DNA from: Acidimicrobiales bacterium
Lineage (GTDB): Bacteria > Actinomycetota > Acidimicrobiia > Acidimicrobiales > Bin134
Direction: 5' to 3'
DNA: 64,000 nt
Assembly: GCA_965115985.1 (NCBI GenBank)
Contig: OZ220474.1
Span: forward strand, 2,396,909 to 2,460,908
The translations under genes and the position numbers were made by a program. This document shows positions 10,446 to 64,000 of the stretch, piece after piece. Within the stretch, counting starts at the first letter, position 1, and each line of letters opens with the position of its first letter. The notes under the pieces were generated by a model that worked only from the letters and a program-made list of their open reading frames with translations, had not been told where the DNA came from and made no database searches.

Positions 10446-10491
10446 GCTCCCCCCTTTGCTGCCGCGCACGTTAGCGCGGCCGGCACTGGGG

Positions 10492-10742
10492 GGTGGAAAG
10501 TGAGGCGCATCGGTCATCTTCTGGGGGGTTGTCTTGGTCAGCGCGACTGGCATTGCGGGGTGGAAAGTGAGGCGCATCGGTCATCTTCTGGGGGGTTGTC
10601 TCGGTCAGCGCGACTGGCATTGCGGGCAGAAGGTGAGAGTGCGGGCATCGGTCATCTTCTGGGGGGTTGTCTCGGTCAGCGCGACTGGCATTGCGGGCAG
10701 AAGGTGAGAGTGCGGGCATCGTAGGTGCGGTGTTGGAGCGGG
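10492..10742. repeat. 67/71-bp tandem repeat x3.7 copying the 3' end and stop of fpg
   Basis: ...tcagcgcgactggcattgcgg... recurs with unit starts at 10492, 10559, 10626 and 10697. The real stop is at 10676-10678. Confidence 0.9.
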
Positions 10743-11508: not shown

Positions 11509-11747
11509 TGCACGGGTGGGGCTTATTGGCGGGAACCGAGGAGGTCGGTGGTGACGCGGTGCAGGAGCGGGGTTTATCGGCGGGAACCGAGGAGGTCGGT
11601 GGTGACGCGGTGCAGGAGCGGGGTTTATCGGCGGGAACCGAGGAGGTCGGTGGTGACGCGGTGCAGGAGCGGGGTTTATCGGCGGGAACCGAGGAGGTCG
11701 GTGGTGACGCGGTGCAGGAGCGGGGTTTATCGGCGGGAACCGAGGAG
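11509..11747. repeat. 51-bp tandem repeat x4.6 copying the 3' end and TAA stop of the nucleotidyltransferase gene
   Basis: ttatcggcgggaaccgaggag... occurs at 11523 (variant), 11574, 11625, 11676 and 11727 (native). Confidence 0.95.
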
Positions 11748-20863: not shown

Positions 20864-21117
20864 CGGGTGGATCCCGCCTGGCGTCCCCCACCGATCCAGT
20901 CGATCAGCTCCCGGTCGAGGTTGTTCATCGGGTGGATCCCGCCTGGCGTCCCCCACCGATCCAGTCGATCAGCTCCCGGTCGAGGTTGTTCATCGGGTGG
21001 ATCCCGCCTGGCGTCCCCCACCGATCCAGTCGATCAGCTCCCGGTCGAGGTTGTTCATCGGGTGGATCCCGCCTGGCGTCCCCCACCGATCCAGTCGATC
21101 AGCTCCCGGTCGAGCAT
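20827..21117. repeat. 65-bp tandem repeat x4.4 containing the kinase start codon and first 12 codons
   Basis: cgatccagtcgatcagctcccggtcgaggttgttcatcgggtgg... occurs at 20827, 20892, 20957, 21022 and 21087 (partial variant). Confidence 0.95.
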
Positions 21118-35891: not shown

Positions 35892-36575
35892 ATGCAGGTA
35901 GATATTCGTCATGCTCCCAGTTTTGCGGTTGCCCGGTGCGTTCTGAGCGGTGGGGAACAGGTCAAGGTCGAGGCGGGGGCCATGTCGGCCCATTCCATGG
36001 GGATGTCGCTGGAGGCCAAGATCGATGGCGGGGTGTTCAAGGGGCTCAAGCGCAGCATCCTGGGTGGCGAGTCGCTGTTCTTGTCCACCTTCACCGCCCC
36101 GGCCGAGGGTGGTTGGGTGGATGTGGCCGCCAAGCTGCCCGGCGACCTGCGGGTACTCGAGTTGGACGGCTCGCAGGCGTGGGTGATCGAGCGGGGCAAC
36201 TGGCTGGCCTCCGATGCCTCGGTGGGGGTGGACACCAAGTGGAGCGGGTTCAAGTCGATGGTCGGCGGCGAGGGCGGTTTCATGGTTCACGCCGAGGGCA
36301 CCGGCAAGGTGGTGGTGGCCTCCTACGGGGCCATCGATGTGATCTCGCTGGCGGCCGGCGAGTCGGTGGTGGTGGATACCAGTCACATGCTGGCCTTCCC
36401 CGACACGGTTAGCTACGAGCTGCGTCGGGCGGTGGAGGGTCGCTCGATCCAGTCGATGAAGTCGGGCGAGGGCTTCGTATTCCACTTCACCGGCCCCGGC
36501 GACATCTTGACCCAGACCCGCAACCAGCAACAGCTCATCGCCTGGATCAACACCGAGATCGGTTCCCGGGAGTAG
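35892..36575 (+). CDS. AIM24/DUF124 (TIGR00266) family protein
   Basis: MQVDIRHAPSFAVARCVL..GEQVKVEAGAM...GESLF is characteristic of the family. Confidence 0.85.
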   Translation: MQVDIRHAPSFAVARCVLSGGEQVKVEAGAMSAHSMGMSLEAKIDGGVFKGLKRSILGGESLFLSTFTAPAEGGWVDVAAKLPGDLRVLELDGSQAWVIERGNWLASDASVGVDTKWSGFKSMVGGEGGFMVHAEGTGKVVVASYGAIDVISLAAGESVVVDTSHMLAFPDTVSYELRRAVEGRSIQSMKSGEGFVFHFTGPGDILTQTRNQQQLIAWINTEIGSRE

Positions 36576-36730
36576 GAGCCTGGATCAACACCGAGATCGG
36601 TTCCCGGGAGTAGGAGCCTGGATCAACACCGAGATCGGTTCCCGGGAGTAGGAGCCTGGATCAACACCGAGATCGGCTCCCGCGAGTAGGAACCTGGATC
36701 AACACCGAGATCGGCTCCCGCGACGCGAGG
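36541..36730. repeat. 38-bp tandem repeat x5 copying the last 11 codons and TAG of the AIM24 gene
   Basis: cctggatcaacaccgagatcggttcccgggagtaggag occurs at 36541, 36579, 36617, 36655 and 36693. Confidence 0.95.
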
Positions 36731-36762: not shown

Positions 36763-37731
36763 CTAGCGGTGACAGCAGTCGGTGGGGCAGGGGGGTGGTG
36801 GGGGAGCGAGGGCGAGGTCGGCGATCATGGCCACGAATGCGGGGTGGGTGCCGACGGTGGGGACTCGGGAGAACCGGAGTCCCAAGGAGTCGGCTCGCCC
36901 CCGGGCCTCGGTGTCGAGGTCGTAGATGACCTCCATGTGGTCGGCCACGAAACCGATGGGCACCACGATCACCGCGTCCGCCCCGTCTCGGGCCAACCGG
37001 TCGAGTTCGTCGCCGATGTCGGGTTCCAACCACGGCACCCGGGGCGGGCCGCTGCGGCTCTGGTAGGCCAGCGACCACCGGTCGGTTCCGGTGCGGGTCG
37101 CCACCTGGAGACAGGCCCGGTCGAGCTGGGACTGATAAGGAGCGGTGGCCGCCATTGAATGGGGAATGCTGTGGGCGGTGAACACCACGGGGGCGCTTGG
37201 CTCCGCCTCCCGGGCGACGGCCAGATTGGCGGCCATGGCCGACAAAAAGCCCTCGTGCTCCCAGAACGGAGGCAGCTTGTCGATTACCGGTGCATCGGGT
37301 CCGACCGCCGCCCGGGCCCGGTCGATGTCCTCGGCGTACTGCCGACAGCCCGAGTAGGAGCCGAAGGCCGAGGTGACGAACCCTGTCGACCGGGTAATGC
37401 CGTCGTCGCGCATCTCGGCCACGGCGTCGGTCAGCATGGGTGTCCAGTTCCGGTTGCCCCAGTAAACCGGAATATCGGCTCCCCGCCCGGCCAACTCGTC
37501 AACCAGGGCGGCCATCAGGTCACGGTTGCACTGGTTGATGGGACTGATGCCGTCGAACAAGTAGTAATGCTCGGCCACCGCGGCCAGGCGGTCGTCACCG
37601 ATACCCCGTCCCCGGGTCACGTTGCGCAAGAACGGCATGACGTCATCGGGCTCCTCGGGTCCGCCGAACGACACGATCAGGATCGCGTCGGGACGGGAGC
37701 CAGGCATTGCGGTTGAGGATACCGTGGGCAT
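36763..37731 (-). CDS. hemH: Ferrochelatase (actinobacterial type with C-terminal Cys cluster)
   Basis: ILIVSFGGPE, PFWEHEGF and HSIPHSM motifs. The C-terminus is PPPCPTDCCHR. Confidence 0.9.
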   Translation of the reverse strand: MPTVSSTAMPGSRPDAILIVSFGGPEEPDDVMPFLRNVTRGRGIGDDRLAAVAEHYYLFDGISPINQCNRDLMAALVDELAGRGADIPVYWGNRNWTPMLTDAVAEMRDDGITRSTGFVTSAFGSYSGCRQYAEDIDRARAAVGPDAPVIDKLPPFWEHEGFLSAMAANLAVAREAEPSAPVVFTAHSIPHSMAATAPYQSQLDRACLQVATRTGTDRWSLAYQSRSGPPRVPWLEPDIGDELDRLARDGADAVIVVPIGFVADHMEVIYDLDTEARGRADSLGLRFSRVPTVGTHPAFVAMIADLALAPPPPPCPTDCCHR

Positions 37732-37866
37732 GGTCGGTTGCCGACTGCGGTCAGCCCGGAGCCAGGCATTGCGGTTGAGGATACCGTGGGCATGGTCGGT
37801 TGCCGACTGCGGTCAGCCCGGAGCCGGAGGCATTGCGGTTGAGGATACCGTGGGCATGGTCGGTAG
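37697..37866. repeat. 62/64-bp tandem repeat x2.7 containing the hemH start codon
   Basis: gagccaggcattgcggttgaggataccgtgggcatggtcggttgccgactgcggtcagcccg occurs at 37697, 37759 and 37821. ATG copies lie at 37731, 37793 and 37857. Confidence 0.95.
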
Positions 37867-37952: not shown

Positions 37953-38861
37953 TTGCGGGTTAGAGAACGCAGTCGTCTGACGGTTCTTATCAGTGCCGTG
38001 GCCGCCACCTTGGCGACTGCCGGCGGGGTCGCTCTTGGGCAGATGGATGGACAGAGCGATGGAGACGACGATCCGATCTCGCCGGTAGCGGTCGAGTCGG
38101 CCGACCCGGCGTGGCGCGATCTGAACCGAGCTCTCCAGGATCTCGAGACCGCCGAAGCGGCCCGCGACGCCGTTCAGTCCTCCATTGACCGCACGACCGA
38201 CGAACTGAACCTGGAACTGGGTCGGCTGGATCAACTCAACCGCACCGATGCCGGCAAGCGGTTGCTGGAGGGGGAGGCCCGACAGTTGGTCGTGCAGGAG
38301 TACATGCTGGGGGGCCATCTTGAGGATCTGGTGTTCGTCCTGGGGGTGTCCGAGGCCACCGACGCCATTTGGCGCAATGCCCTGCTTTCGGAGGTGTCCG
38401 AGGTGATGGACGATGCCTTGAGGTCGACCGATGACGTGCCCGGGGAGCGGGAGCGAACCGAGGCTCGCATTCGGCGGCTCAACAACGCCCTGCCGTATCT
38501 GAACGACCGCGTGGCCGATGCCAAGCAATCGGTGGCGGCGGCCGAGTGGGTGGTGTACATCGCCGAGATCAACGATCTGGCCGACCGCGAGCTGGCGGCC
38601 AACGGATGGATAGAGCCCACCGAGAGTCATTGGCACAACCTCCGGTGGTGCGAATCCCGCAACAACTATCGCATCGAGAGTGCCAACGGCCTGTTCTACG
38701 GTGCCTACCAGTTCGAGCCCCGGACATGGAGAACGGTGGGCGGCACCGGCAACCCGGCCCACGCCCCGCCCGAGGAGCAGGATGCCCGAGCCCGTCTGCT
38801 GTACGCCCGCAGGGGGGCCCAGCCCTGGCCCCGGGACTACTGCGGTCGGTGGCTGCCGTAG
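37953..38861 (+). CDS. Secreted Rpf-like transglycosylase-domain protein with coiled-coil N-terminal region
   Basis: Signal-like N-terminus after a TTG start with GGGAGAGAG upstream. The C-terminal WHNLRWCESRNNYRIESANGLFYGAYQFEPRTW resembles the Rpf/transglycosylase-like domain. Confidence 0.75.
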   Translation: MRVRERSRLTVLISAVAATLATAGGVALGQMDGQSDGDDDPISPVAVESADPAWRDLNRALQDLETAEAARDAVQSSIDRTTDELNLELGRLDQLNRTDAGKRLLEGEARQLVVQEYMLGGHLEDLVFVLGVSEATDAIWRNALLSEVSEVMDDALRSTDDVPGERERTEARIRRLNNALPYLNDRVADAKQSVAAAEWVVYIAEINDLADRELAANGWIEPTESHWHNLRWCESRNNYRIESANGLFYGAYQFEPRTWRTVGGTGNPAHAPPEEQDARARLLYARRGAQPWPRDYCGRWLP

Positions 38862-38977
38862 TTCCAACCCAAGTCCCCCCAGTACCGGGCGGCCCCAGTA
38901 GTTCCAACCCAAGTCCCCCCAGTGTCGGGCGGCCCCAGTAGTTCCAACCCAAGTCCCCCCGGTGCCGGGCGGCCCAG
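38858..38977. repeat. 40-bp tandem repeat x3 starting on the rpf-like TAG stop
   Basis: gtagttccaacccaagtcccccc.gt..cgggcggcccca occurs at 38858, 38898 and 38938. Confidence 0.95.
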
Positions 38978-40997: not shown

Positions 40998-41010
40998 TCT
41001 GCCGGGTGGG

Positions 41011-41076
41011 TTGGCTATGAGTTGGATCGACTATCGGGGGGATTGGCTACGAGTTGGATCGACTATCAGGGGGATT
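41011..41076. repeat. 33-bp tandem repeat x2 resembling the 3' end and TGA of the upstream gene
   Basis: ttggcta.gagttggatcgactatc.gggggat occurs at 41011 and 41044. The unit end ctatcagggggattga resembles the native ctaccaggtggattga. Confidence 0.85.
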
Positions 41077-41084
41077 GAGGGGCA

Positions 41085-42976: not shown

Positions 42977-43318
42977 TCAGCCGTCGCCGAGCAGTCGGTT
43001 GACCATTCGGGCCATCGGGCCGGGTCGGGGAGGTTCGTAGTCGTCGGGCACCAGGTGGGGGGCGTAGTGGGCCAGGGTGGTCATTACCCGGTCGGGTGTG
43101 GGGTTCACCATGGCGGTGTCACCCACCACCACGGTGGGCACCGTTTCGTTGCCGGCGGCCACCGATCGGACAAAGGCGGCCGCCGAGGGATCCTCCCAGA
43201 TGTTGTGCATGTCCATGTGTACGCCGAGTTCGTCCAGCTTGCGGTGCAGGTGAGCGCAGAACCCGCATCCCGGTCGCCAGTAGAACGTGATGCCGCCCAC
43301 CGGGGAGTTCGAGCTCAC
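42977..43318 (-). CDS. Glutaredoxin-like protein (mycoredoxin type, CGFC)
   Basis: ITFYWRPGCGFCAHL...TVPTVVVG. The GTG start at 43318 lies within a GTGA. Confidence 0.8.
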   Translation of the reverse strand: MSSNSPVGGITFYWRPGCGFCAHLHRKLDELGVHMDMHNIWEDPSAAAFVRSVAAGNETVPTVVVGDTAMVNPTPDRVMTTLAHYAPHLVPDDYEPPRPGPMARMVNRLLGDG

Positions 43319-43432
43319 GGCACGTAGGGCAGGGCCAGCACCACCCGCTCGGCCAGGTCGCGGTCGCCGCTCACGGCACGTAGGGCAGGGCCAGCACCAC
43401 CCGCTCGGCCAGGTCGCGGTCGCCGCTCACGG
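43314..43432. repeat. 56-bp tandem repeat x2.1 of the GTGA junction and last 19 codons of the DinB-like gene
   Basis: ctcacggcacgtagggcagggccagcaccacccgctcggccaggtcgcggtcgccg occurs at 43314 and 43370, with a partial copy at 43426. Confidence 0.95.
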
Positions 43433-44168
43433 TAACCAGCCCGGTGGCCAGTGCCCCGGCCGGATCGGTGCGGCCGCAGCACAGCGCGTTGTAGGTGTCC
43501 ACGTCGGTATGCACGGTAGCGGTGGGCTCGGAGGCCGGGGCCGAGGGCTTGGCCCGACCATCGATCACCGCCACCCCTCGGGGGCCGCCGGTGTCGCCCT
43601 CGACGTCGAATACCACGGTGCTTCCCTCGGGAGCGCCCGCCTTCTTGCCCACCACGAAGCCCATGTTGTTGGCGTGCCAGTCCAGGCAGTGTCTAACCAC
43701 CGGACCACTCAGATGACCGGGGATACCGAGCGCCCGGCGCATGTCCTGCTCGTGGGCCCAGCAGTCGAACACCCGGATGTGCATGAACGTCCGGTAAGGG
43801 GCCTTGCCGATCGGGGTGAAACCCACCTCGTCCCACTTCTCCTCGGGCATGGTTCGCAGCATCTCCAGCCGCCGGGCGCAGAGATCGATCATCTCGGCCA
43901 GCACCTCCGCGCCGGGGCGGGATCGTCGGGGGGCGATCTGACCCTCGTTGAACGCGGCGATGTCGTCCAGCCCATCCCCAGTGGCGGGGGGTTCGGTGTC
44001 CACCCCGGCCAGCATCCGCTCGGTGCCGATGATGTGGCTGACCTGGTCACGCACCGACCAACCGGGGCACTCGGTGGGCAGGTCCCACTGCTCGTCGCTC
44101 AGTCCCGCGCCGAGGTCGGCAATGGAGTCCCAAACCGATTCCAACAACTCGATGACCGGATCGCTCAT
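43371..44168 (-). CDS. Mycothiol-dependent maleylpyruvate-isomerase-like DinB-fold protein (TIGR03083 type)
   Basis: MSDPVIELLESVWDSIADLGAGLSDEQWDLPTECPGWSVRDQVSHI. Confidence 0.8.
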   Translation of the reverse strand: MSDPVIELLESVWDSIADLGAGLSDEQWDLPTECPGWSVRDQVSHIIGTERMLAGVDTEPPATGDGLDDIAAFNEGQIAPRRSRPGAEVLAEMIDLCARRLEMLRTMPEEKWDEVGFTPIGKAPYRTFMHIRVFDCWAHEQDMRRALGIPGHLSGPVVRHCLDWHANNMGFVVGKKAGAPEGSTVVFDVEGDTGGPRGVAVIDGRAKPSAPASEPTATVHTDVDTYNALCCGRTDPAGALATGLVTVSGDRDLAERVVLALPYVP

Positions 44169-44314
44169 CCTGGTGTCCTTTTCATCAATGGATCGTCCGT
44201 CATGTCTGCCGGCCGCCTGGTGTCCTTTTTATCAATGGATCGTCCGTCATGTCTGCCGGCTCTTCATCCGGGGGCCGCTTCCGACGTGTAGCCCTTCATC
44301 CGGGGGCCGCTCAT
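44165..44314. repeat. Composite repeat (47-bp x2 and 33-bp x2) carrying five ATGA overlaps
   Basis: cctggtgtcctttt.atcaatggatcgtccgtcatgtctgccgg occurs at 44169 and 44216. cttcatccgggggccgct occurs at 44263 and 44295. Confidence 0.9.
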
Positions 44315-45042
44315 GTCTCCAACCCCACGGTGAACGACCGGGTGTCGTCGTCGAGCATCTGGCGTATGGCCTCGGCCACCGGACCCCGGATGATGCGTCG
44401 AGTGGCCGCGAACGCCGTGATCGACAGCCCCTCGGCCAGCGCCGCGGCCTCGGCCATGGCGGCCTCCTCCAGCTCCTCGGCCGGCACCACTCGATCGAGG
44501 TAGCCGGCATCGACCGCGGTGTCGGGCGAGTAGAGCCGGGCCAGCAGAACCGAGGAGTGAACGTGGCGGGGGGACAGCCGGTCGCGGGCCAGCGTTATCA
44601 CCGACGCGGGCAGCACCATGCCTATGGCGGTCTCGTTGAGTCCGATCTTGGCCGGGACGGCCGCACCGATGCGCACGTCGCAGCTCATCAGCCAGATGGC
44701 CCCGGCGGCCAGGGCGTGGCCGGTGCAGGCGGCCACCACCGGGATGGGGAACTCGTACAGCCTCAGGAACAGATCCATGCCCGCTCGGAACAGGTTGCGG
44801 GCCGCTTCGGGGCCGGACTCCATCACCTTCAGATCGAATCCGGCGGTGAACCGGCCCGGGCGACCCATCATCACCACGGCCCTGGCCTCCTCGGCCGCTT
44901 GATCGAGCACCGTCTCCAGGCCGGTGATGACCTCGTGGGACAAGACGTTGACCTTGCCGTCGTCCAGCCTGATGATGGCGACGTCGCCGTTCGGTTCGTA
45001 GCCGACCGAGGCGCTGGTTGTCCCTGTCATGGCCGATGACAC
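44311..45042 (-). CDS. Enoyl-CoA hydratase/isomerase (crotonase) family
   Basis: VAIIRLDDGKVNVLS...GRFTAGFDL oxyanion-hole region. 243 aa. Confidence 0.85.
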   Translation of the reverse strand: MSSAMTGTTSASVGYEPNGDVAIIRLDDGKVNVLSHEVITGLETVLDQAAEEARAVVMMGRPGRFTAGFDLKVMESGPEAARNLFRAGMDLFLRLYEFPIPVVAACTGHALAAGAIWLMSCDVRIGAAVPAKIGLNETAIGMVLPASVITLARDRLSPRHVHSSVLLARLYSPDTAVDAGYLDRVVPAEELEEAAMAEAAALAEGLSITAFAATRRIIRGPVAEAIRQMLDDDTRSFTVGLET

Positions 45043-45262: not shown

Positions 45263-46204
45263 GTGGTGGCTGCCATTTCTGTTCGCGGTATGCGCCGAAC
45301 CTACGGAGAGGTGGTGGCGGTCGACTCGCTCGACCTCGAGGTGGCCGAGGGGGAGGTCTACGGATTTCTGGGCCCCAACGGCGCCGGTAAGTCCACTGCG
45401 GTGAGGATGCTGTGTACGTTGGTGTCGATGACCTCGGGGACGGCCTCGGTCGCCGGTTACGACGTGGCCACCCAGGGCGATCGGGTGCGGCTCAGCATCG
45501 GGGTGGCCCTTCAGGACGCGGCCCTCGACGGCAAGCTCACCGGGCGGGAGACGCTGACCCTTCAGGGCCGGTACTACGGTCTGGAGCGGGCATCCATCAC
45601 CGCTCGCATGGAGCAGTTGGCCCCCCTGCTGGAGATGGATGCCATCGACCGGCGAGTGTCCACCTACTCGGGGGGTATGAAGCGCCGACTGGATCTGGCC
45701 GCCGCGCTGATGCACAACCCCAAGGTTCTGTTCCTGGACGAGCCCACCACCGGACTCGACCCCATCAGCCGAGCCACGGTCTGGGAACAGATCCGGCGGT
45801 TGAATCGTGAGCTGGGCATGACCATCTTCCTCACCACCCAGTACCTGGAGGAGGCCGACATGCTGACCCACCGGGTGGGGATTTTGAACGAGGGTCGCCT
45901 CGTGGCCGAGGGAACGCCCGATGAGCTCAAGCGCACGGTGGGCTCCGACGTGGTGGTGGCCCGGGTGGTCGGCAACCCCGAGGTGGCGGCCGCGGCCATC
46001 GGCGAGGTGCCGGGCATAAGCAACGTGGAGGTCTACGAGAACGAAGTGAGCGCGGCCACCGGCGACGGGGCCTCGGTGATAAGCCCGGTGGCGGTGGCGT
46101 TGTCGGCGGCCGGAGTGGAGGTATCCGACCTGTCGATCCACCCCACCACGCTCGACGACGTGTTCCTCGAGCTCACCGGAGCCCGGATAGAGGTGGAGGA
46201 ATGA
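45263..46204 (+). CDS. ABC transporter ATP-binding protein (DrrA/ABC-2 type); start approximate
   Basis: GPNGAGKST, LSGGMKRRL and LFLDEPT motifs. The start is probably GTG 45263/45266 just before ISVRGMRRTYG. Confidence 0.85.
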   Translation: MVAAISVRGMRRTYGEVVAVDSLDLEVAEGEVYGFLGPNGAGKSTAVRMLCTLVSMTSGTASVAGYDVATQGDRVRLSIGVALQDAALDGKLTGRETLTLQGRYYGLERASITARMEQLAPLLEMDAIDRRVSTYSGGMKRRLDLAAALMHNPKVLFLDEPTTGLDPISRATVWEQIRRLNRELGMTIFLTTQYLEEADMLTHRVGILNEGRLVAEGTPDELKRTVGSDVVVARVVGNPEVAAAAIGEVPGISNVEVYENEVSAATGDGASVISPVAVALSAAGVEVSDLSIHPTTLDDVFLELTGARIEVEE

Positions 46205-46285
46205 GCGACCCGGCCTGCGACTCGTGCCAGGAGGCGGTGCGCTGCACCGGAGCCCGGATAGAGGTGGAGGAATGAGCGACCCGGC
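46174..46285. repeat. 71-bp-period duplication (41-nt core x2) of the ATGA ATPase-stop/permease-start junction
   Basis: caccggagcccggatagaggtggaggaatgagcgacccggc occurs at 46174 and 46245. Confidence 0.95.
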
Positions 46286-49033: not shown

Positions 49034-49149
49034 TCGACACCTGTGACAGTATCCCCCCTGAATCATCTTCAGCCATAAGAATCAACGTAAAAAATATAGA
49101 AATATCCAGAATTTAATCGGTTTGAATGACAAAAACCTCCTACCTCTCC

Positions 49150-49186
49150 AGCAAGGCCCCGGAACCAGGAGCCCACCAAACCGGGG
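49150..49186 (-). mobile_element. Degenerate IS3-end-like fragment
   Basis: caggagcccaccaaaccggggcaacccc compared with caggtgtccaccaaaccggggcaactcc at 5212-5238. Confidence 0.4.
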
Positions 49187-49216
49187 CAACCCCATGGCAA
49201 CCCAAATATCGGCTTC

Positions 49217-49356
49217 GCGATGTTCGGGTCGTGGGGCCACGGCCAGCGTCCGGGTGGCGCACTGCCGGCCTGCACCGCGATGTTCGGGTCGTGGGGCCAC
49301 GGCCAGCGTCCGGGTGGCGCACTGCCGGCCTGCACCGCGATGTTCGGGTCGGGCAG
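49217..49356. repeat. 60-bp perfect tandem repeat x2.3 upstream of the NfuA-like gene
   Basis: cgcgatgttcgggtcgtggggccacggccagcgtccgggtggcgcactgccggcctgcac occurs at 49217 and 49277, with a partial copy at 49337. Confidence 0.95.
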
Positions 49357-49400
49357 GTCGGGGTCGAGTTCGGGCGGGTGGCTCGGGTAGGCTGGTCGGC

Positions 49401-50024
49401 GTGAGCGAGACGGTTCAAGCCCAACTGTTCGAGGTGACCGAGGCGGCCATTGCCAAGGTACTCGAGATCCGATCCAACGAGGATGATTCCGAAGCCCTCG
49501 GCCTGCGTATCGAGGTGACCGGGGTCAGCGGTGCCGACTACACCTACGATCTGGCGTTCGAGGAGATTGCCCAGTGCGTGGAGGGCCATCGCAGCATCAT
49601 CGCCGGGGGCCTTACGGTGATGATCCCCGAGGAGTCGGTCGAGGCGCTGACCGGAGCCACACTGGATCTGCCCAACAACCCCATGCAGGGTGGGCTGGTC
49701 ATCCGCAACCCCAACAAGCCCGACCTCTTGGCCGGTGCCGATCTGGAGCTCGCCGGCACGGTCCCCGAAAAGCTCCAGCAGCTTCTCGATCAGCACATCA
49801 ATCCCTCGCTGGCCTCCCACGGTGGTTTCGCCACCCTGCTGGGGGTGGAGGGGCCCACCGCCTACATCACCATGGGCGGCGGATGCCAGGGCTGTGCCAT
49901 GAGCGCGGCCACGCTGCGGGAGGGCATAACCGTGATGATCACCGAGGCGATCCCCGAGATCACCGATGTGGTGGACGCCACCGACCACGAGGCCGGCGAC
50001 AACCCCTACTTCGCCCGCACCTGA
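49401..50024 (+). CDS. Fe-S cluster carrier, IscA/HesB-like N-domain + NifU C-terminal domain (NfuA-like)
   Basis: GTG 49401. The protein has FEVTEAAIAKVLEIR... and HGGFATLLGVEG...GGGCQGCAMS. Confidence 0.8.
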   Translation: MSETVQAQLFEVTEAAIAKVLEIRSNEDDSEALGLRIEVTGVSGADYTYDLAFEEIAQCVEGHRSIIAGGLTVMIPEESVEALTGATLDLPNNPMQGGLVIRNPNKPDLLAGADLELAGTVPEKLQQLLDQHINPSLASHGGFATLLGVEGPTAYITMGGGCQGCAMSAATLREGITVMITEAIPEITDVVDATDHEAGDNPYFART

Positions 50025-50046
50025 ACCTCCCCCGACCCACCTGCTC

Positions 50047-50275
50047 CCCCGCCCGTCCGGGACGTGACCCGGATATGAGTCGTTCGGTCCGAGGCCGCCC
50101 GTCCGGGACATGACCCGGATGTGAACTGCCCGGTTCGGGCCCCGCCCGTCCGGGACATGACCCGGATGTGAACTGCCCGCTTTGGCCCCGCCCGTCCGGG
50201 ACGTGACCCGGATGTGAGTTGCCCGCTTCGGGCCCGTCCGTCCGGGACGTGACCCGGATGTGAGTTGTCGGCGCG
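50047..50275. repeat. 46/47-bp tandem repeat x5
   Basis: cgtccgggac(a/g)tgacccggat(g/a)tga... occurs at 50054, 50100, 50147, 50193 and 50239. Confidence 0.9.
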
Positions 50276-50294
50276 GCCTGGCAGAATGGCGGGC

Positions 50295-51992
50295 ATGTTC
50301 GATCTTTTGATTCGTGGGGGCACGGTTGTGGACGGGACGGGATCCGTTCCCAGGGTTGCCGATGTGGCGGTGGCCGATGGGGTGGTGGCCGCGATCCAAG
50401 CCGGTCTCGTCGCCGAGGCCACCGAGGTGATCGATGCCACCGGACGCTACGTGACCCCGGGGTTCGTGGACGTGCATACCCACTACGACGGCCAGGCCAC
50501 CTGGGATCCGATCATGGCCCCCTCGGCCTGGCACGGGGTGACCACGGTGGTGATGGGCAACTGCGGGGTGGGTTTCGCCCCCGCCGATCCCGATGCCCAC
50601 GACTGGCTGATCGAGCTGATGGAGGGGGTGGAGGACATCCCCGGGGCGGCCCTCCACGAGGGGATCACCTGGCGATGGGAGACCTTCCCCGAGTACATGG
50701 ACGAGCTCGAACGGCTCGACCGCACCATCGACGTGGCCGCCCAGGTGCCCCACGGGGCGGTGCGGGCCTACGTCATGGGCCAGCGGGGGGCCACCACCGA
50801 GGCGGCCACCGCGCCCGAGCTGGCCGAGATGGCCCGCATCGTGGGCGAGGGAACCGGTGCCGGTGCGGTGGCGTTCTCCACCAACCGATTGCCGCTGCAC
50901 ACCTCGCTGTCGGGGGTGCCGGTGCCGGGTACCTTCGCCGACCATCAGGAGCTGGCCGCCCTCGTGGGGGCGCTTTCGGGCCGGTCGCTGGTGGAGGTGG
51001 TGCCGGCCGGCTCCATGGGCGAGGATCCCGACGCCCCCATCCGGGAGGTGGAGCTGTACCGGCGGTTGAGCCTCGAGACCGGTCGAGCCATCACCTTCAC
51101 CATGGTGCAGATCCACGCCAACCCCGGCCAGTGGCGACGGCAGATGGACATCGTGGAGCGAGCCAACGCCGAGGGGGCCAGGCTGGTGCCCCAGGTGCAG
51201 GGCCGCCCCGGCGGGCTGCTCGCCGGATGGGATCAGTTCAACCCGTTCGCCAAGCGCCCGTCCTACCAGGCACTGGGCCACCTGCCGCTGGAGGAACGAT
51301 TGACCGAGCTGCGCCGCCCGAAGTTGCGTGCGGCGATCCTGGCCGAGGATATTCCCGGCGATCCGGCCATGGGCATCCTGCGCCATTCCCTGCACGCCAC
51401 GTTCCCGTTCGACGACGGCCCGGTGTTCGAGCCCGACCCCGCCGATTCGGTGGCGGTTATGGCCGACCGCACCGGCACCGATGTGCTCGAGCTTTTGTAC
51501 GACCTGATGTGCGACCGGGGGATGCTCCAGGTGTTCTTCACCGGCTACCACCACGGCGACCTCGAGGACCTGCGGGAGATGATGGTTCATCCCATGACCG
51601 TGGTCGGGTTGGCCGACGGCGGGGCCCACTGCCGGGTGATCTCCGACGCCAGCCTGCCCACCTACGTGCTCCAGCACTGGGTGCGCGACCGCCGGCGAGG
51701 ACCGAAGCTGTCCATGGCCGAGGCGGTGAGGCTGTTGACCTCCGAACCGGCCGAGCTCTACGGCTTCGACGACCGGGGCGTGCTGGCCACCGGCAAGCGG
51801 GCCGACCTCAACGTCGTCGACCTCGAGGCCATGCGCCTCCACCTGCCCGAAGTGGTGGCCGACCTTCCCACCGGGGCCCGCCGCCTGCTCCAGAGCGCCG
51901 ATGGTTACGACGCCACCGTCTGCGCCGGCGAGGTCACCTTCCGCCACGGCCACCCCACCGGTGCTCGTCCCGGAACCCTCATCCGGGGCTAG
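50295..51992 (+). CDS. N-acyl-D-amino-acid deacylase (D-aminoacylase) family amidohydrolase
   Basis: [16 protein letters not shown]...[13 protein letters not shown]. Confidence 0.85.
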
Positions 51993-52042
51993 CCCCATCC
52001 CCCGAGCAGTCGCGCCCGGCATCGACCCTCTTGTTTTGACCG

Positions 52043-52133
52043 CCCCTTGTCGCCATGAAGTGCCCATGATGACCATTCGTCGGAGTCGGCGACCGATGCC
52101 GAGCCCGGCATTGATCCCCTTGTCGCCATGAAG
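52043..52133. repeat. 73-bp-period duplication of the helicase start region
   Basis: ccccttgtcgccatgaag occurs at 52043 and 52116. The decoy ATG 52055 opens only MKCP*. Confidence 0.85.
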
Positions 52134-54941
52134 GGCCCCGAACCCCTGGGCCGCAGTGCTCTTGTCGCGGTGGGGCAGTCGGCACCGCAAGCCTGGCAGG
52201 GTTGCCCACGCCTGAGGGTGCGAACCGACCGCTTCGATCCGGCGGTGGGGCGGGAGCTGAGACGAGCGTGGGTGGAACGCACCCCGGTGGTGATCGAACT
52301 GCAAGGCAACCTGCCGGAGGCCGAGCCGGTCATTCATACCCATTGGTGGGAGCTCAATGCCGGTTTGACCATGCCCGCCGAGGTGTTCGGTCATCTCCTC
52401 ACCGCCAACACCGTGGATTGGCGTGATCCCCACCACCCCCGATTCGAGCCCCGGGAGCGAGCGCTGGTGCTGGGAGCCCGCCCGACCGCGGAGGGCGAGC
52501 CCGGTGATGTGGTGACCGCCACCGGACCGATCTGGTGCGACGGCGGGCCGTTCGCGGTGTTCGACCCCGAAGCGCTGGGGGCCGGATCGGTTCCCGCCGT
52601 TCCCGCCGTCAACCTGGCGGCCGGGAGCCTGGTCGCCCCGACCCCGACCCGACCCCGGGCCGACCTGGCCGACGACCAGATGGCCGCGGTGGCCCATCTG
52701 GGCGGCGGTGCCTGCATCGTGGCCCCGGCCGGTTCGGGCAAGACCCGGGTGCTCACCGAACGAGCCCGCTACCTGGTGCGCGACCTCGGCGTCGATCCCC
52801 GAGCCGTCTGCCTGGTGGCGTTCAACGTGCGGGCTCGGGCCGAGATGGCCGAACGCACCGCCGATCTCCCCGGTCTGGAGGTGCGCACGCTCAACAGCCT
52901 GGCCCTGGCGGTAACCAACGGCACCGGCCCGTTCGCCCGCCCCCGCGACCACGGCCGGGTGGAGGTGATCGACGAGCGCAGGGTGCGGGACCTGCTCGAC
53001 GGGATGGTGCCCCGCAAGCGGCGGGCCATGACCGACCAGCTCGCTCCCTGGATCGAGGCTCTGGGCGCGTCCCGGCTGGGTCTGCGGGATCCCGCCGAGG
53101 TGGAGCGCGACTTCCATCCCGATGTGCCCGACTTCTCGGTGATCGCCCCCCGATACGTCGATCTGCTCGACGAACGGGGCCTGGTGGACTTCGACCAGCA
53201 GATCGTTCGGGCCATCGACGTCCTGCTCGGCGACCCCGCGGCTCGGGCCGCGGCCCGGCGGGTGTGCGGCATCCTCTTGGTGGACGAGTTCCAGGATCTC
53301 ACCCCCGCACACCTGCTTTTGGTGCGGCTGCTGGCCGGACCCCGAGCCGATGTGTTCGGGGTGGGCGACGACGACCAGACCATCTACGGCTACTCCGGGG
53401 CGTCCCCGCAGTGGCTGATCGACTACGACAAGTTCTTCCCCGGATCCCGCCGCCACGAACTGCACGTCAACTACCGCTGCCCTCCCGAGGTGGTGGATGC
53501 CGCCTCCAACCTCCTGTCCCACAACCGCCGACGCATCGACAAGCAGATCACCGCGGCTGGGGGCCAAGCCGACCCCGACAATCCCGGCCAGGACCGCCCC
53601 GCCCGTTCCGGCCCGGACCGCCCCACCCCCGACCGCCCCGCCCCCGCCCGCCCCGGCCCGGTTGCACCCATCACCGTCCGGACGGCAGCCTACGGAGCAC
53701 CGGTACTGCGTCGGACCGTCGAATCCCTGCTGAACGCCGGTGTCCATCCCCACCACATCGCCGTTTTGGCTCGGGTGAACAGCACCCTGTTGGTTCCCCA
53801 GATCGTTCTTGGCGAGATGGAGGTGCCGTCCACCCGACCGGTGGGTCACTGGTTCCTGGAGCGCACCGGGGTGGCCGCCGCCCTGGCCTGGCTGGACATC
53901 GCCACCGCCCCGGAGCGGGGCCTGCCCGCCCAGGCCCTGGCCGATGCCGCCCGCCGTCCCCCCCGAGGCATCTCCCCTCGGGTCATCGAATGGATCGCCG
54001 AACAACAAAGCGTCTCGGAGATCAAGGCCCTGGCCCGCCGCATCAAGGACGAACGCTCCTCCCGGAAGGTGAGCGAGTTGGCCGACGATGTCAAGATGCT
54101 GCGGTCGAGGGCTCGCAAGGCCGGTGGTCGGGTCACCACCCGGGCCCTGCTGGAGACGGTGCGCGACGAGATGGGCCTGGGCGGAAGCCTGGACACTCGC
54201 CTGGACGCCTCCCGCCGCTCGGTGGATCGATCGGCCCACGGCGACGATCTACGAGCGCTCATCTCGGTGGCTCATCTGCACCCCGACCCGACCGATTTCA
54301 GGGAGTGGCTGGCCGACAGGCTGCCGGACGCAGGTGGGGGCGACCGGGGTGTCCGGCTGGCCACCGTGCATCGGGTGAAGGGGCTCGAGTGGCCCCACGT
54401 GATTGTCTACGAGGCGTCCAAGGGGCTGATGCCCCATCGCTTGTCGGGAGACCTGGAGGAGGAACGGCGGGTGTTCCACGTGGCCCTCACCCGCTGCTCG
54501 GAATCGGTCACCCTCATCTGCGGCGACCCACCCACCACCTTTCACCAGGAACTACTGACCCGCCACCAACCCCCTCCCGACCCCGACCCGACCACCACCG
54601 CCGACCTGCTCACGCCCCCCATCGTCACCGCCCCCACCCCACTACCCGACTCGCCCCCCAGCAAAACACCCACCAACAAGCCACCCTCACGCTCCAATCC
54701 CCATCCCCCCTCCGACCCCGTCGGCAGCGCCGCATTCGAGGCCCTGAAAGCCTGGAGACGCGAACGCAGCCGAGCCGACGGCGTTCCCGCCTACATCGTG
54801 TTCACCAACGCCACCCTGATGGAACTAGCCACCCACCGCCCCACCACCGACACCGAACTCCTATCCATCCCCGGCATCGGCCCCACCAAACTCACCACCT
54901 ACGGCGAAGACATCAAAAAAGTCCTCACCCAGTTCCACTAA
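52128..54941 (+). CDS. UvrD/Rep-family helicase with ~180-aa N-terminal extension and C-terminal HRDC domain (UvrD2-like)
   Basis: APAGSGKT Walker A, DEFQD, VHRVKGLEW, and a C-terminal AFEALKAWRRERS...IPGIGPTKL HRDC domain after a Pro/Thr-rich linker. Confidence 0.9.
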   Translation: MKGPEPLGRSALVAVGQSAPQAWQGCPRLRVRTDRFDPAVGRELRRAWVERTPVVIELQGNLPEAEPVIHTHWWELNAGLTMPAEVFGHLLTANTVDWRDPHHPRFEPRERALVLGARPTAEGEPGDVVTATGPIWCDGGPFAVFDPEALGAGSVPAVPAVNLAAGSLVAPTPTRPRADLADDQMAAVAHLGGGACIVAPAGSGKTRVLTERARYLVRDLGVDPRAVCLVAFNVRARAEMAERTADLPGLEVRTLNSLALAVTNGTGPFARPRDHGRVEVIDERRVRDLLDGMVPRKRRAMTDQLAPWIEALGASRLGLRDPAEVERDFHPDVPDFSVIAPRYVDLLDERGLVDFDQQIVRAIDVLLGDPAARAAARRVCGILLVDEFQDLTPAHLLLVRLLAGPRADVFGVGDDDQTIYGYSGASPQWLIDYDKFFPGSRRHELHVNYRCPPEVVDAASNLLSHNRRRIDKQITAAGGQADPDNPGQDRPARSGPDRPTPDRPAPARPGPVAPITVRTAAYGAPVLRRTVESLLNAGVHPHHIAVLARVNSTLLVPQIVLGEMEVPSTRPVGHWFLERTGVAAALAWLDIATAPERGLPAQALADAARRPPRGISPRVIEWIAEQQSVSEIKALARRIKDERSSRKVSELADDVKMLRSRARKAGGRVTTRALLETVRDEMGLGGSLDTRLDASRRSVDRSAHGDDLRALISVAHLHPDPTDFREWLADRLPDAGGGDRGVRLATVHRVKGLEWPHVIVYEASKGLMPHRLSGDLEEERRVFHVALTRCSESVTLICGDPPTTFHQELLTRHQPPPDPDPTTTADLLTPPIVTAPTPLPDSPPSKTPTNKPPSRSNPHPPSDPVGSAAFEALKAWRRERSRADGVPAYIVFTNATLMELATHRPTTDTELLSIPGIGPTKLTTYGEDIKKVLTQFH

Positions 54942-58692: not shown

Positions 58693-60588
58693 TCAGCCAA
58701 GTCGTAGGTTGAGGTTGCCGTTGCCCCAGCAGGTGATGGTGCCGTCGATGCGCAGCTTGCACGAATGCGACCCGCCGGCGGATACCGCGGCGAATCGGAT
58801 GTCGGGTGCCTCCGCCCGCCCGTGGTCGTTGTCGCCCCAGCAGGTGATCGTGCCATCGGTGCGCAGCCCGCACGAATGCGATCCGCCGGCGGATACTGCG
58901 GTGAATTGCCCGCCGGGTGCTACTACCTGCCCGTGGTCGTTGTCGCCCCAGCAGGTGATCGTGCCGTTGGTGCGCAAACCACAAGAATGCGATCCGCCGG
59001 CGGATACCGCGGTGAATTGCCCGCCGGGTGCCTCCGCCCGCCTGGAGTCGTTGTCGCCCCAGCAGGTGATCGTGCCGTTGGTGCGCAAACCACAAGAATG
59101 CGATCCGCCGGCGGATACCGCGGTGAATTGCCCGCCGGGTGCCTCCGCCCGCCCGGAGCCGTTGTAGCCCCAGCAGGTGATCGTGCCGTTGGTGCGCAAA
59201 CCACAAGAGTGCGATCCGCCGGCGGATACCGCGGTGAACTGTCCGTCCGGTGCCTCCGCCTGCCCGTAGCCGTTGTTGCCCCAGCAGGTGATCGTGCCAT
59301 CGGTGCGCAAACCGCACGAATGCTCGCCGCCGGCGGATACCGCGGTGAATTGCCCGCCGGGTGCCTCCGCCCGCCCGTTGTTGCGCCAGCAGGTGATCGT
59401 GCCATCGGTGCGCAAACCGCACGAATGCGATCCGCCGGCGGATACCGCGGCGAACTGTCCATCCGGTGCCTCCGCCCGCCCGTAGCCGTTGTCGCCCCAG
59501 CAGGTGATCGTGCCGTTGATGCGCGCACCGCACGAATGCGATCCGCCGGCGGATACCGCGGCGAATCGGATGTCGGGTGCCTCCGCCCGTCCGTGGTCGT
59601 TGTCGCCCCAGCAGGTGATCGTGCCATCGGTGCGCAGCCCGCACGAATGCGATCCGCCGGCGGATACTGCGGTGAATTGCCCGCCGGGTGCTACTACCTG
59701 CCCGTGGTCGTTGTCGCCCCAGCAGGTGATCGTGCCGTTGGTGCGCAAACCACAAGAATGCGATCCGCCGGCGGATACCGCGGTGAATTGCCCGCCGGGT
59801 GCCTCCGCCCGCCTGGAGTCGTTGTAGCCCCAGCAGGTGATCGTGCCGTTGGTGCGCAAACCACAAGAATGCGATCCGCCGGCGGATACCGCGGCGAACT
59901 GCCCGTCCGGTGCCTCCGCCCGCCCGTAGCCGTTGTCGCCCCAGCAGGTGATCGTGCCATCGGTGCGCAAACCACAAGAATGCGGTCCGCCGGCGGATAC
60001 CGCGGCGAACTGCCCGTCCGGTGCCTCCGCCCGCCCGTAGCCGTTGTCGCCCCAGCAGGTGATCGTGCCATCGGTGCGCAAACCGCACGAATGCTCGCCG
60101 CCGGCGGATACCGCGGCGAACTGCCCGTCCGGTGCCTCCGCCTGCCCGTAGCCGTTGTTGCCCCAGCAGGTGATCGTGCCATCGGTGCGCAAACCGCACG
60201 AATGCTCGCCGCCGGCGGATACCGCGGTGAACTGTTCTGCCGTGACTCGTTCTGGGTTGGGGGTAGGTGTGGGTTGGAGGGTGAGGGGGGAGCTGTTGAG
60301 CCATTGGCCGGTGGAGGCGGTGGTGGGGAAGTAGCGCTTGTCGGGTAGGAGGCGGTCGCTCCATGTGTTGTCGGGCTGGCGGGTTTGGAGGGCGAACTCG
60401 ATCCTGCCGCTGTTCAATTTGCGGGCGGTGATTCGTACTTCCCGCGTACCATCATCAGCAGTCTGGGTTTGGGTGGCTACAGTGGGAGCAACGGCTGTGA
60501 CCCCTACTGAGATTGCCAGTATCACCGCGCTGGCCCACACCAACGATTTTACTTTTTTCTTGCCCATTTTTACTTTTCCCCTGTCCAT
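58693..60588 (-). CDS. Secreted RCC1-like repeat protein (one N-terminal module + 14 x 37-aa blades)
   Basis: Signal/TM region KSLVWASAVILAISVGVTAVA. The unit GQFTAVSAGGSHSCGLRTDGTITCWGDNGYGRAEAPD is 111 bp. Alternative start at 60567. Confidence 0.85.
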   Translation of the reverse strand: MDRGKVKMGKKKVKSLVWASAVILAISVGVTAVAPTVATQTQTADDGTREVRITARKLNSGRIEFALQTRQPDNTWSDRLLPDKRYFPTTASTGQWLNSSPLTLQPTPTPNPERVTAEQFTAVSAGGEHSCGLRTDGTITCWGNNGYGQAEAPDGQFAAVSAGGEHSCGLRTDGTITCWGDNGYGRAEAPDGQFAAVSAGGPHSCGLRTDGTITCWGDNGYGRAEAPDGQFAAVSAGGSHSCGLRTNGTITCWGYNDSRRAEAPGGQFTAVSAGGSHSCGLRTNGTITCWGDNDHGQVVAPGGQFTAVSAGGSHSCGLRTDGTITCWGDNDHGRAEAPDIRFAAVSAGGSHSCGARINGTITCWGDNGYGRAEAPDGQFAAVSAGGSHSCGLRTDGTITCWRNNGRAEAPGGQFTAVSAGGEHSCGLRTDGTITCWGNNGYGQAEAPDGQFTAVSAGGSHSCGLRTNGTITCWGYNGSGRAEAPGGQFTAVSAGGSHSCGLRTNGTITCWGDNDSRRAEAPGGQFTAVSAGGSHSCGLRTNGTITCWGDNDHGQVVAPGGQFTAVSAGGSHSCGLRTDGTITCWGDNDHGRAEAPDIRFAAVSAGGSHSCKLRIDGTITCWGNGNLNLRLG

Positions 60589-62172: not shown

Positions 62173-64000
62173 CCAGAACCTCTGCCAAGGTACCAGCAGG
62201 TGATGGTGCCATCCGTGCGCACACCACACGAACGCACGCCCGAAAGATGTTGTTCATGGCCGCCAACGGACACTGCGGTGAACTGTCCATCCGGTGTCGC
62301 CTGTCCGTACTCGTCACTGTAGCCCCAGCAAGTTACCGTGCCATTGGTGCGCAGACCACATGAATTCGATCCGCTGGCGGATACTGCGGTGAACTGTCCA
62401 TCTGGAGCATCCGCCTGACCGTAGGCGTTGTCACCCCAGCAGGTGATGGTGCCGTCGGTGCGCAGACCACACGGGGACTCGCCGCCGGTGGATACTGCGG
62501 TGAATTGTCCGTCGGGAGCATCCGCCTGACCGTAGGCGTTGTCACCCCAGCAGGTGATGGTGCCGTCGGTGCGCAGACCACACGGGGACTCGCCGCCGGT
62601 GGATACTGCGGTGAATTGTCCGTCGGGTGCCTCTGTTTGACCAGATAAGTTCTTGCCCCAGCAGGTGATGGTGCTGTTGGTGCGCAGGCCGCATGAATGC
62701 CAGCGGCCAGTGGATACTGCGGTGAACTGTCCATCTGGAGCATCCGCCTGACCGTAGGCGTTGCCGCCCCAGCAGGTGATGGTGCCGTCGGTGCGCAGGC
62801 CGCACGAATGACCCCAGCCAACGGTTATTGCGGTGAATTGTCCGTCGGGTGCCTCTGCCTGCCCGCTCTCGTTGTTGCCCCAGCAGGTGATGGTGCCGTC
62901 GGTGCGCAGACCGCACAAATGATCGGGACTGGCGGTTATTGCGGTGAATTGTCCGTCGGGTGCCTCTGCCTGCCCGCTCTCGTTGCCGCCCCAGCAGGTG
63001 ATGGTGTCGTTGGTGCGCAGGCCGCATGAATGCCCGTTGCCGGTGGATACTGCGGTGAATTGTCCGTCGGGAGCATCCGCCTGACCGAGATAATCTCCTT
63101 GCCAGTCGTTGTTGTTGCCCCAGCAGGTGATGGTGCCGTTGGTGCGCAGCCCGCACGAATGGTTGCCGCCGGCGGATACTGCGGTGAATTGCCCGTCGGG
63201 TGCCTCTGTTTGACCAGATAAGTTCTTGCCCCAGCAGGTGATGGTGCCGTTGGTGCGCAGCCCGCACGAATGGTTGCCGCCGGCGGATACTGCGGTGAAT
63301 TGTCCATCTGGAGCATCCGCCTGCCCTTGGTAGTTGTTGCCCCAGCAGGTGATGGTGCTGTTGGTGCGCAGACCACACGGGGACTCGCCGCCGGCGGATA
63401 CTGCGGTGAATTGTCCGTCGGGAGCATCCACCTGGCCGCTCCCGTAGCCGCCCCAGCAGGTGATGGTGTCGTTGGTGCGCAGACCACATGAATGCCCGTT
63501 GCCGGCGGATACTGCGGTGAATTGTCCGTCGGGAGCATCCGTCTGCCCTTGGTAGTTGTTGCCCCAGCAGGTGATGGTGTCGTTGGTGCGCAGGCCGCAT
63601 GAATGCCCGTTGCCGGCGGATACTGCGGTGAATTGTCCATCTGGAGCATCCGCCTGCCAGCTGCTGCCCCAGCAGGTGATGGTGCCGTTGGTGCGCAGGC
63701 CGCACGAATGGCTACCGCCGGCGGATACTGCGGTGAATTGGTTTTGGTTGGGGGCCGGTGTGGGTTGGAGGGTGAGTGGTGAGCTTGTGAGCCACCGGCC
63801 TGTAGGAGCGGTGGTGGGGAAGTAGCGCTTGTCGGGCAGCAAACGGCTACCCCATGCGTTATCGGCCTCGCGAGGTTGAAGGGCGAACTCAACCCTGCCG
63901 CTGTTCAGTTTGCGAGCCATGATGCGTGCTGTGCTGGTTTTTAGGGTGAGTGGGGAGCTGGTGAGCCAGCGGCCGGTGGGTGCGGTGGTGGGGAAGTAGC
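62169..64000 (-). CDS. RCC1-like repeat surface protein, 5' partial (continues beyond window)
   Basis: About 14 blades (34-41 aa) are preceded by at least two N-terminal modules. The frame stays open through 63921-64000 (YFPTTAPTGRWLTSSPLTLKTSTARI before the track Met). Confidence 0.85.
   Translation of the reverse strand, partial: YFPTTAPTGRWLTSSPLTLKTSTARIMARKLNSGRVEFALQPREADNAWGSRLLPDKRYFPTTAPTGRWLTSSPLTLQPTPAPNQNQFTAVSAGGSHSCGLRTNGTITCWGSSWQADAPDGQFTAVSAGNGHSCGLRTNDTITCWGNNYQGQTDAPDGQFTAVSAGNGHSCGLRTNDTITCWGGYGSGQVDAPDGQFTAVSAGGESPCGLRTNSTITCWGNNYQGQADAPDGQFTAVSAGGNHSCGLRTNGTITCWGKNLSGQTEAPDGQFTAVSAGGNHSCGLRTNGTITCWGNNNDWQGDYLGQADAPDGQFTAVSTGNGHSCGLRTNDTITCWGGNESGQAEAPDGQFTAITASPDHLCGLRTDGTITCWGNNESGQAEAPDGQFTAITVGWGHSCGLRTDGTITCWGGNAYGQADAPDGQFTAVSTGRWHSCGLRTNSTITCWGKNLSGQTEAPDGQFTAVSTGGESPCGLRTDGTITCWGDNAYGQADAPDGQFTAVSTGGESPCGLRTDGTITCWGDNAYGQADAPDGQFTAVSASGSNSCGLRTNGTVTCWGYSDEYGQATPDGQFTAVSVGGHEQHLSGVRSCGVRTDGTITCWYLGRGSG

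Follow-up and report, generated by a model that had tools for sequence, protein, structure and literature searches.

Serial tandem duplication of gene junctions as the probable source of a chain of overlapping mini-ORFs in an Acidimicrobiia operon

Mycobacterial interspersed repetitive units (MIRUs) are tandem intergenic units found at start codons, each carrying an open reading frame (ORF) with -4 nt coupling (Supply et al. 1997, cited in PMC12548453). Here, we describe a similar arrangement outside the mycobacteria: a chain of four mini-ORFs that fills the space between a gene for an enoyl-CoA hydratase/isomerase (ECH; crotonase fold) and a gene of the MDMPI/DinB_2 family. It lies in a 64-kb stretch of DNA (contig OZ220474.1, positions 2,396,909 to 2,460,908; hereafter the window, numbered from its first letter) from the 3.37-Mb genome of a sponge-associated member of the Acidimicrobiia related to Candidatus Poriferisocius. 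We propose that the chain is probably incidental, the result of repeated duplication of the junction in a genome prone to such events, and that it has been tolerated probably because ribosome flow was kept.

The likeness to MIRUs is one of architecture. MIRUs are tandem units of roughly 40-100 bp between co-directional genes, and here a 47-bp unit in two copies is joined by a second unit repeated at a spacing of 32 nt. MIRUs carry small ORFs with -4 nt overlaps to their neighbours and to the downstream gene, and here four ATGA links do the same. Expression of the downstream gene is little affected by a MIRU insertion, and would be predicted to be little affected at the present locus. However, MIRUs form a dispersed, apparently mobile mycobacterial family with a shared consensus, whereas the 47-nt and 32-nt units appear to be copies of flanking gene ends and are specific to this locus, with no other copy in the window, in 68 fetched loci or in ~450 kb of relatives. 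Homology to the MIRU consensus is unlikely, the host being a Ca. Poriferisocius-like member of the Acidimicrobiia. The arrangement appears instead to consist of junction duplications that arose de novo, are specific to their locus and mimic the MIRU layout.

Three other described systems bear on the locus. The canonical -4 overlap of translational coupling at ATGA and TGATG (Huber et al. 2019, 2023) occurs at every link of the chain, and a single overlap of this kind is the ancestral state. The known cases are single and run from gene to gene, whereas here four non-functional mini-ORFs are chained over 142 nt. In mycobacteria, upstream ORFs (uORFs) were reportedly described by Shell and colleagues in 2015. 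Mycobacterial uORFs with NUGA overlaps include short ORFs that would only deliver a ribosome to an overlapping start, as may happen here, and uORF-to-uORF overlaps are also reported (D'Halluin et al., preprint 10.1101/2022.06.01.494293). However, those uORFs lie in 5' leaders, while the present chain is intercistronic, would be fed by the upstream gene and was made by tandem duplication. Finally, bacterial minisatellites, or variable-number tandem repeats, which arise by replication slippage, share with this genome their near-identical head-to-tail copies of 30-110 nt and the microhomology at duplication ends (e.g. CCGTGAGC). They differ from what is seen here in that the window has a very high density of arrays (32 in 64 kb), which are concentrated on gene boundaries.

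The chain was first proposed in a first-pass annotation of the sequence, and direct reading of 43900-44600 reproduced it. Five minus-strand ATGA motifs lie at 44314-11, 44267-64, 44250-47, 44203-00 and 44168-65. The ECH gene (243 codons) ends inside the first of these, its TGA occupying 44313-44311, and translation from each ATG in turn returned the four mini-ORFs of 16, 6, 16 and 12 codons with the peptides originally listed (Table 1). As the annotation had claimed, these back-to-back frames tile all 150 bases between the two genes and the last stop overlaps ATG 44168. All starts are ATG, the chain is without breaks and a -4 stop/start overlap is present at 5/5 junctions. Two extra ATGA motifs, at 44299-96 and 44185-82, fall outside the chain. 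Measured from the end of the ECH stop to the MDMPI ATG, as for all spacers below, the intervening sequence is 142 nt. The identities given to the flanking genes, crotonase and DinB/MDMPI-like, hold by Pfam. The ECH C-terminus (...SFTVGLET and stop) is kept in 34 relatives, and about 20 close MDMPI homologues (72-85% identity, ~265 aa, 100% coverage; several named Candidatus Poriferisocius) are available. Because these share the same length at full coverage, ATG 44168 is the conserved MDMPI start. The next gene downstream encodes a glutaredoxin-like protein (42977..43318; Pfam).

As for the repeats that build this spacer, the first-pass annotation had invoked 47-bp and 33-bp copies; the former is correct, whereas the copies of the latter are spaced at 32 nt. 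The 47-bp copies carry GGCAGACATGA plus one AAGGA in each. The second duplication, with copies built on a GCGGCCCCCGGATGAAG core, divides what was once a single mini-ORF of 11 codons, giving mini-ORFs 1 and 2. When the 47-bp repeat is collapsed a three-step relay results, and when the 32-nt repeat is collapsed too, the sequence becomes ATGA-32-ATGA-35-ATGA with the relay still intact. Mini-ORF 4 corresponds to the old terminal unit of 35 nt, which is homologous to units at two related loci, L009 and L029, with the same 35-nt ATGA-to-ATGA distance. It also aligns to the ECH 3' end of loci in which the two genes overlap directly (16/26 identities). This suggests that the spacer may have started out when the 3' end of ECH was copied together with ATGA, and that the GGAGGAC Shine-Dalgarno (SD) sequence of the relatives may derive from the ECH codons GTA-GGA-C. 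No source for the filler sequences was found in the window. The GCGGCCCCCGGATGAAG core (44257-44277 / 44296-44309) has a borderline inverted match, ~100 nt upstream, to the ECH codons RRIIRGP at 44380-44400 (93% over 14 nt, 81% over 21 nt), which may reflect a template-switch origin of the filler, or chance.

How much does an unbroken chain say about function? Composition-matched shuffles of the 142-nt spacer gave some complete relay in 25-27% of trials, because a length of 1 mod 3 and the rarity of stops at 65% G+C let one long ORF join the ends; averaged over three length classes the figure was ~10%. A four-step relay appeared in only ~1e-4 of such shuffles (about 1 in 10,000). However, we judged shuffling to be a misleading null and replaced it by exhaustive enumeration of all possible 5-60 nt tandem duplications in both inferred ancestors. 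The relay was kept after 87% of duplications in the three-step ancestor and 78% in the two-step ancestor. Growth from two to four steps is therefore no evidence of design, and once the repeats are given a multi-step chain follows automatically. Indeed, the units each bring an ATGA, have lengths that are all 2 mod 3, and are G+C-rich with few stops, so that the chain stayed unbroken after each duplication. Thus, the chain structure of the proposed relay stands but it is probably not a purpose-built device, both because retention is the default and because sibling junctions have undergone similar expansion.

Together with this one, three adjacent junctions with an ancestral NTGA overlap are all expanded with the relay intact. 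At the junction between the MDMPI and glutaredoxin genes, a perfect duplication with microhomology CCGTGAGC at its ends has created the mini-ORF VSGDRDLAERVVLALPYVP, which runs from GTG 43374 to a stop at 43317-15 that overlaps GTG 43318. Relatives carrying the glutaredoxin gene have a direct GTGA overlap with MDMPI. At the junction between an ABC ATPase and its permease, a 41-nt junction copy is repeated at 71-nt spacing with 30 nt of filler. ATGA 46272-75 is the true permease start, and the overlap is direct in 33/33 relatives checked. A second four-step relay lies farther away, with ATG codons at 21117, 21058, 20993 and 20928 leading to a 399-codon gene at ATG 20863, the first 12 codons of which are repeated by its 65-nt units. 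The 64 kb thus hold two four-step and two one-step relays. Other boundary arrays have no overlapping relay, for example those at 10473-10721, 11518-11748, 37696-37864, 38858-38975 and 41003-41077. In L009, CCCTACGTGTCGTGAGTTG (the 3' end of MDMPI with its stop) occurs three times at 3783-3925, successive copies being 68 and 54 nt apart; their core is perfectly conserved and the sequence between them has diverged, with no co-directional gene or glutaredoxin downstream. Duplication therefore occurs with or without coupling.

Table 1. Features of the ECH-MDMPI junction and of the other expanded junctions in the window
Feature	Position	Strand	Evidence or detail
ECH gene (crotonase fold)	44311..45042	-	Pfam ECH_1 1e-34
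Mini-ORF 1, MSGPRMKGYTSEAAPG, 16 codons	44264..44314	-	ATG 44314; stop 44266-44264 within ATGA 44267-64
Mini-ORF 2, MKSRQT, 6 codons	44247..44267	-	ATG 44267; stop within ATGA 44250-47
Mini-ORF 3, MTDDPLIKRTPGGRQT, 16 codons	44200..44250	-	ATG 44250; stop within ATGA 44203-00
Mini-ORF 4, MTDDPLMKRTPG, 12 codons	44165..44203	-	ATG 44203; stop 44167-65 overlaps ATG 44168
MDMPI/DinB_2-family gene, 265 aa, downstream partner	43371..44168	-	Pfam MDMPI_N 3e-29, DinB_2 3.7e-10
SD-like AAGGA	44176..44180	-	7 nt upstream of ATG 44168; positional homologue of GGAGGA in relatives (alignment)
47-bp tandem duplication, 2.0 copies, one mismatch	44169..44260	-	Tandem Repeats Finder (TRF) score 177; repeat finder family D1
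Second duplication, 21-nt copies (GCGGCCCCCGGATGAAG core), start-to-start spacing 32 nt	44259..44311	-	Repeat finder family D2; pattern search
MDMPI to glutaredoxin GTGA junction, 56-nt x2.1 duplication	43313..43432	-	100% identical
ABC ATPase to permease junction, 24-codon mini-ORF MSDPACDSCQEAVRCTGARIEVEE	46201..46275	+	ATGA 46201-04 to ATGA 46272-75
Second four-mini-ORF ATGA relay, 65-nt x4.4 array	array 20827-21114, relay 21117-20863	-	100% identical

The same junction was then compared in 34 related Ca. Poriferisocius-like loci (L001-L034) obtained from a genome-collection scan, in all of which (34/34) ECH lies directly upstream of MDMPI. The first-pass annotation had predicted a single ancestral ATGA, and this was found in L007, L016, L023 and L024, where the spacer is -4 nt. 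The commonest state is a spacer of 34 nt (19 loci), or of 49 nt in six loci that have an additional 15-nt duplication. In this class the start that overlaps the ECH stop is ATG (TGATG) or GTG/TTG (NTGA), and a bridging ORF of 12-17 codons ends in the MDMPI ATGA. The remaining spacers measure 26 nt (L018, L032), 27 nt (L033), 31 nt (L029, with ATAG in place of ATGA), 35 nt (L004), 96 nt (L009) and 112 nt (L030). L009, the sister of the window in a neighbour-joining tree (nucleotide distance 13%), contains a 20-mer in two copies (GGCCTGACAAAATGAGCAGC) and is bridged in two steps through ATG starts alone, in the form ATGA-65-ATGA-35-ATGA. The 15-nt unit varies between one and two copies among near-identical relatives, a difference between species.

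Across the 35 loci, the window included, the two genes are linked by ATG-only chains or direct overlap in 20 and, if GTG and TTG are allowed, in 30. The unlinked loci are L018, L028, L029, L032 and L033, two of which lost the link through indels of 8 and 7 nt. In L004, the bridging ORF has become an N-terminal extension in frame with the gene through an insertion of 1 nt. This tolerance of frame-breaking indels of 8, 7 and 1 nt in relatives with a strong GGAGGA counts against a purpose-built relay. So does the SD-like AAGGA ahead of the MDMPI ATG in the window, from which the gene may be initiated independently. A conserved micropeptide was rejected, since the bridging peptides vary greatly from one relative to the next; those of the window are meaningless, being not conserved and in part scrambled copies of gene ends.

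These results are consistent with a model in which local tandem duplication of the stop/start overlap in a conserved ECH-MDMPI(-glutaredoxin) operon would have produced the 142-nt spacer. In the order suggested by the repeat structure, the old 35-nt unit, probably derived from the 3' end of ECH with an ATGA, would have come first and brought an internal GGAGGAC that could serve as SD. A 32-nt unit would have been added next, followed by the 32-nt duplication and, last, by the recent 47-bp duplication. A ribosome ending ECH would re-initiate at each overlapping AUG in turn, so the spacer would stay translated and some ribosomes would reach the start of MDMPI, a gene that is also preceded by its own weak SD. 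On this view the relay is best seen as the reason why such insertions may be tolerated rather than as an evolved regulator.

Can coupling work in this manner? Termination-reinitiation is strictly coupled at -4/-1 overlaps in 13/14 native pairs tested (PMC6728339), and it requires such an overlap, a gap of ~20 nt nearly abolishing coupling (PMC10666635). A chain of overlaps would therefore be the sole route for such coupling across 142 nt. Short ORFs may serve solely for ribosome delivery (PMC12548453). At this locus, mini-ORF 1 has a GGAG 3-4 nt upstream of its start, inside ECH codons, with a duplex free energy (dG) of -5.5, where all SD energies were computed against an assumed canonical anti-SD. 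The MDMPI SD also scores -5.5 kcal/mol, a value matched by 32% of random sites, whereas most relatives reach -10 to -12 with GGAGGA. ATG coupling is present at 14/16 weak-SD loci compared with 6/19 strong-SD loci (Fisher p = 0.0016). After collapsing obvious lineages the association gave p ~0.03, and it is post hoc and phylogenetically fragile. The other two weak-SD loci are coupled by other means, and all five unlinked loci have the strong GGAGGA. Chained termination-reinitiation is plausible because the window SD is weak and weak-SD relatives remain ATG-coupled.

A rival reading is that the relay has been selected: chained termination-reinitiation would be required for MDMPI translation and/or for ribosome cover of the spacer against Rho-dependent polarity, so that only chain-keeping duplications were retained. 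Two points weigh against a pure by-product. One is the weak SD with its retained ATG coupling, which hints at selection for coupling. A second hint of such selection is that the duplications spanning NTGA junctions (47, 32, 56, 71 and 65 nt) are 2 mod 3 in 5/5 cases (p = 0.004, post hoc and phylogenetically fragile). In M. tuberculosis, moreover, Rho termination may be suppressed where overlaps are tight (bioRxiv 10.1101/2022.06.01.494293). However, retention of the relay is the default outcome of duplication and ~10-25% of random spacers give some relay, the relatives are phylogenetically non-independent, and the inefficiencies of four serial re-initiations would multiply. Nor is the bias general, as boundary arrays sorted on a gene map requiring a higher G+C content at third than at first codon positions (GC3>GC1) gave gene-end and spacer periods of 6/4/10 for 0/1/2 mod 3, which is not significant (p = 0.25). 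We therefore regard a selected relay as possible but doubtful.

At the other extreme, the spacer could be inert, with mini-ORFs that are not meaningfully translated and MDMPI initiated de novo at its own AAGGA. This motif is SD-like, lies at the canonical distance of 7 nt and corresponds by homology to the GGAGGA of relatives; unlinked relatives with spacers of 26, 27 or 31 nt exist, and the starts of mini-ORFs 2-4 are without convincing SDs. However, AAGGA is weak, the first AUG overlaps the ECH stop just as in direct-overlap relatives, a geometry strictly coupled in nearly all native pairs tested, and each later AUG has the same geometry. We consider an inert spacer unlikely. A structured RNA leader, riboswitch or attenuator was rejected: the spacer matched no Rfam family at E<=1, its predicted RNA fold was no more stable than shuffles (z = -0.22), and its minus strand showed no promoter and no terminator. 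On the plus strand, a weak hairpin resembling a terminator (44207-44222) is no more than chance would give. Of the readings set out so far, a by-product of serial duplication remains the one that we favour.

This reading draws on the state of the window as a whole. TRF reported 32 non-redundant tandem arrays with a period of at least 12 nt, i.e. 5.0 per 10 kb, covering 10.8% of bases. Most units measure 30-110 nt; many of the arrays hold 2-7 copies with 97-100% identity, and they cluster at the boundaries of genes (e.g. 3805-3958, 5864-6101, 18628-18829, 20827-21114, 36540-36720 and 50048-50267). In contrast, only 0-2 weak arrays were seen in any one orthologous locus of 6.8 kb in the relatives, and TRF found none in the sister L009. 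Together, these figures suggest a lineage-specific burst of tandem duplication.

Might the copies instead have been made by assembly or sequencing errors? Many arrays are 100% identical, and no second assembly of the same species came to light: exact-protein look-ups of both flanking proteins gave no match, and metagenome scans with spacer words gave no conspecific sequence (one scan returned no match, and the other returned two unrelated chance matches, L067 and L068). However, on the gene map described above, the periods of arrays inside ORFs are divisible by 3 in 9/10 cases, the exception lying in a probable 5' UTR. Such respect for reading frames means that the repeats are real and have been filtered by selection, which is strongly against an artefact. 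The copies at the ECH-MDMPI junction also differ by one base, and the sister genome has diverged duplications at the same junctions. Artefact is scarcely credible as an explanation.

Insertion of a MIRU-like mobile repetitive element at start codons would fit the architecture, since MIRUs are intergenic tandem units with ORFs coupled at -4 nt (PMC12548453), and one 36-nt unit does occur at two loci in the window. However, 23/25 array units with a period of at least 25 nt are locus-specific within the window, which argues against a dispersed mobile element, and the units at this junction are visibly made from flanking gene ends. As the source of the 47-nt and 32-nt units such an element was rejected, given their confinement to this locus in the window and the fetched loci, and we consider a MIRU-like insertion very improbable.

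Several further arrays were noted. The 36-nt unit (AGTCCTACTGGTCGCAGGGCGCGGGGTTT + GAKGACG) forms arrays at two loci separated by 1.3 kb, 3805-3958 and 5239-5411, both of which lie immediately downstream of minus-strand genes. No other non-coding unit was found to be dispersed. On the minus strand at 5864-6101, a 33-nt unit repeated 7.2 times makes up an 80-codon repetitive ORF (SRSILAPTVGG repeats), one long bridging ORF consisting wholly of repeats. Its start overlaps the stop of the upstream gene (6104) as TGATG, and only 1 nt separates its end from the ATG of the next gene (5860). Arrays also flank a minus-strand Fpg/Nei-like gene, with PELPEVE at its N-terminus and a CPQCQ zinc finger at its C-terminus, on either side (10473-10721 and 11518-11811). 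A 71/67-nt unit there repeats its C-terminal codons and stop together with a spacer of 20 nt and the ATG that follows, and a 51-nt x4.5 array lies upstream of the start, so that the longest-ORF start of this gene is wrong. A 111-nt (37-codon) repeat at 58723-60231 and 62259-63740, in 13.6 and ~13 copies of 77-89% identity, presumably belongs to a gene with a repetitive protein domain, in a region where our ORF map is fragmented. Long antisense ORFs are common at such G+C content, and a 1,699-codon open frame at 49140-54239 (minus strand) is spurious, with GC1 > GC3; the real genes there are on the plus strand and are Nfu-like (49122-50024) and amidohydrolase-like (50265-51992).

Taken alone, the ECH-MDMPI junction is a curiosity, and its value lies in the apparent expansion of many gene boundaries by tandem duplication in one genome, which seems to have left a chain of overlapping mini-ORFs wherever the boundary had been a 4-nt stop/start overlap. 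One practical consequence is a warning for annotation: as gene starts and ends are duplicated in this genome, the longest-ORF start will often be wrong. If the chains carry ribosomes, serial termination-reinitiation would be workable even when chained over >100 nt, which would account for the tolerance of operons to insertions where genes are coupled and would give the MIRU architecture a mechanistic origin. More tentatively, and with some doubt on our part, this may be a lineage with a very high rate of 30-110 nt duplication in which, at ancestral ATGA/GTGA overlaps, only chain-keeping duplications survive. If so, the genome would amount to a natural experiment on chained termination-reinitiation, and MIRU-like architecture would arise de novo, without a mobile element and outside the mycobacteria.

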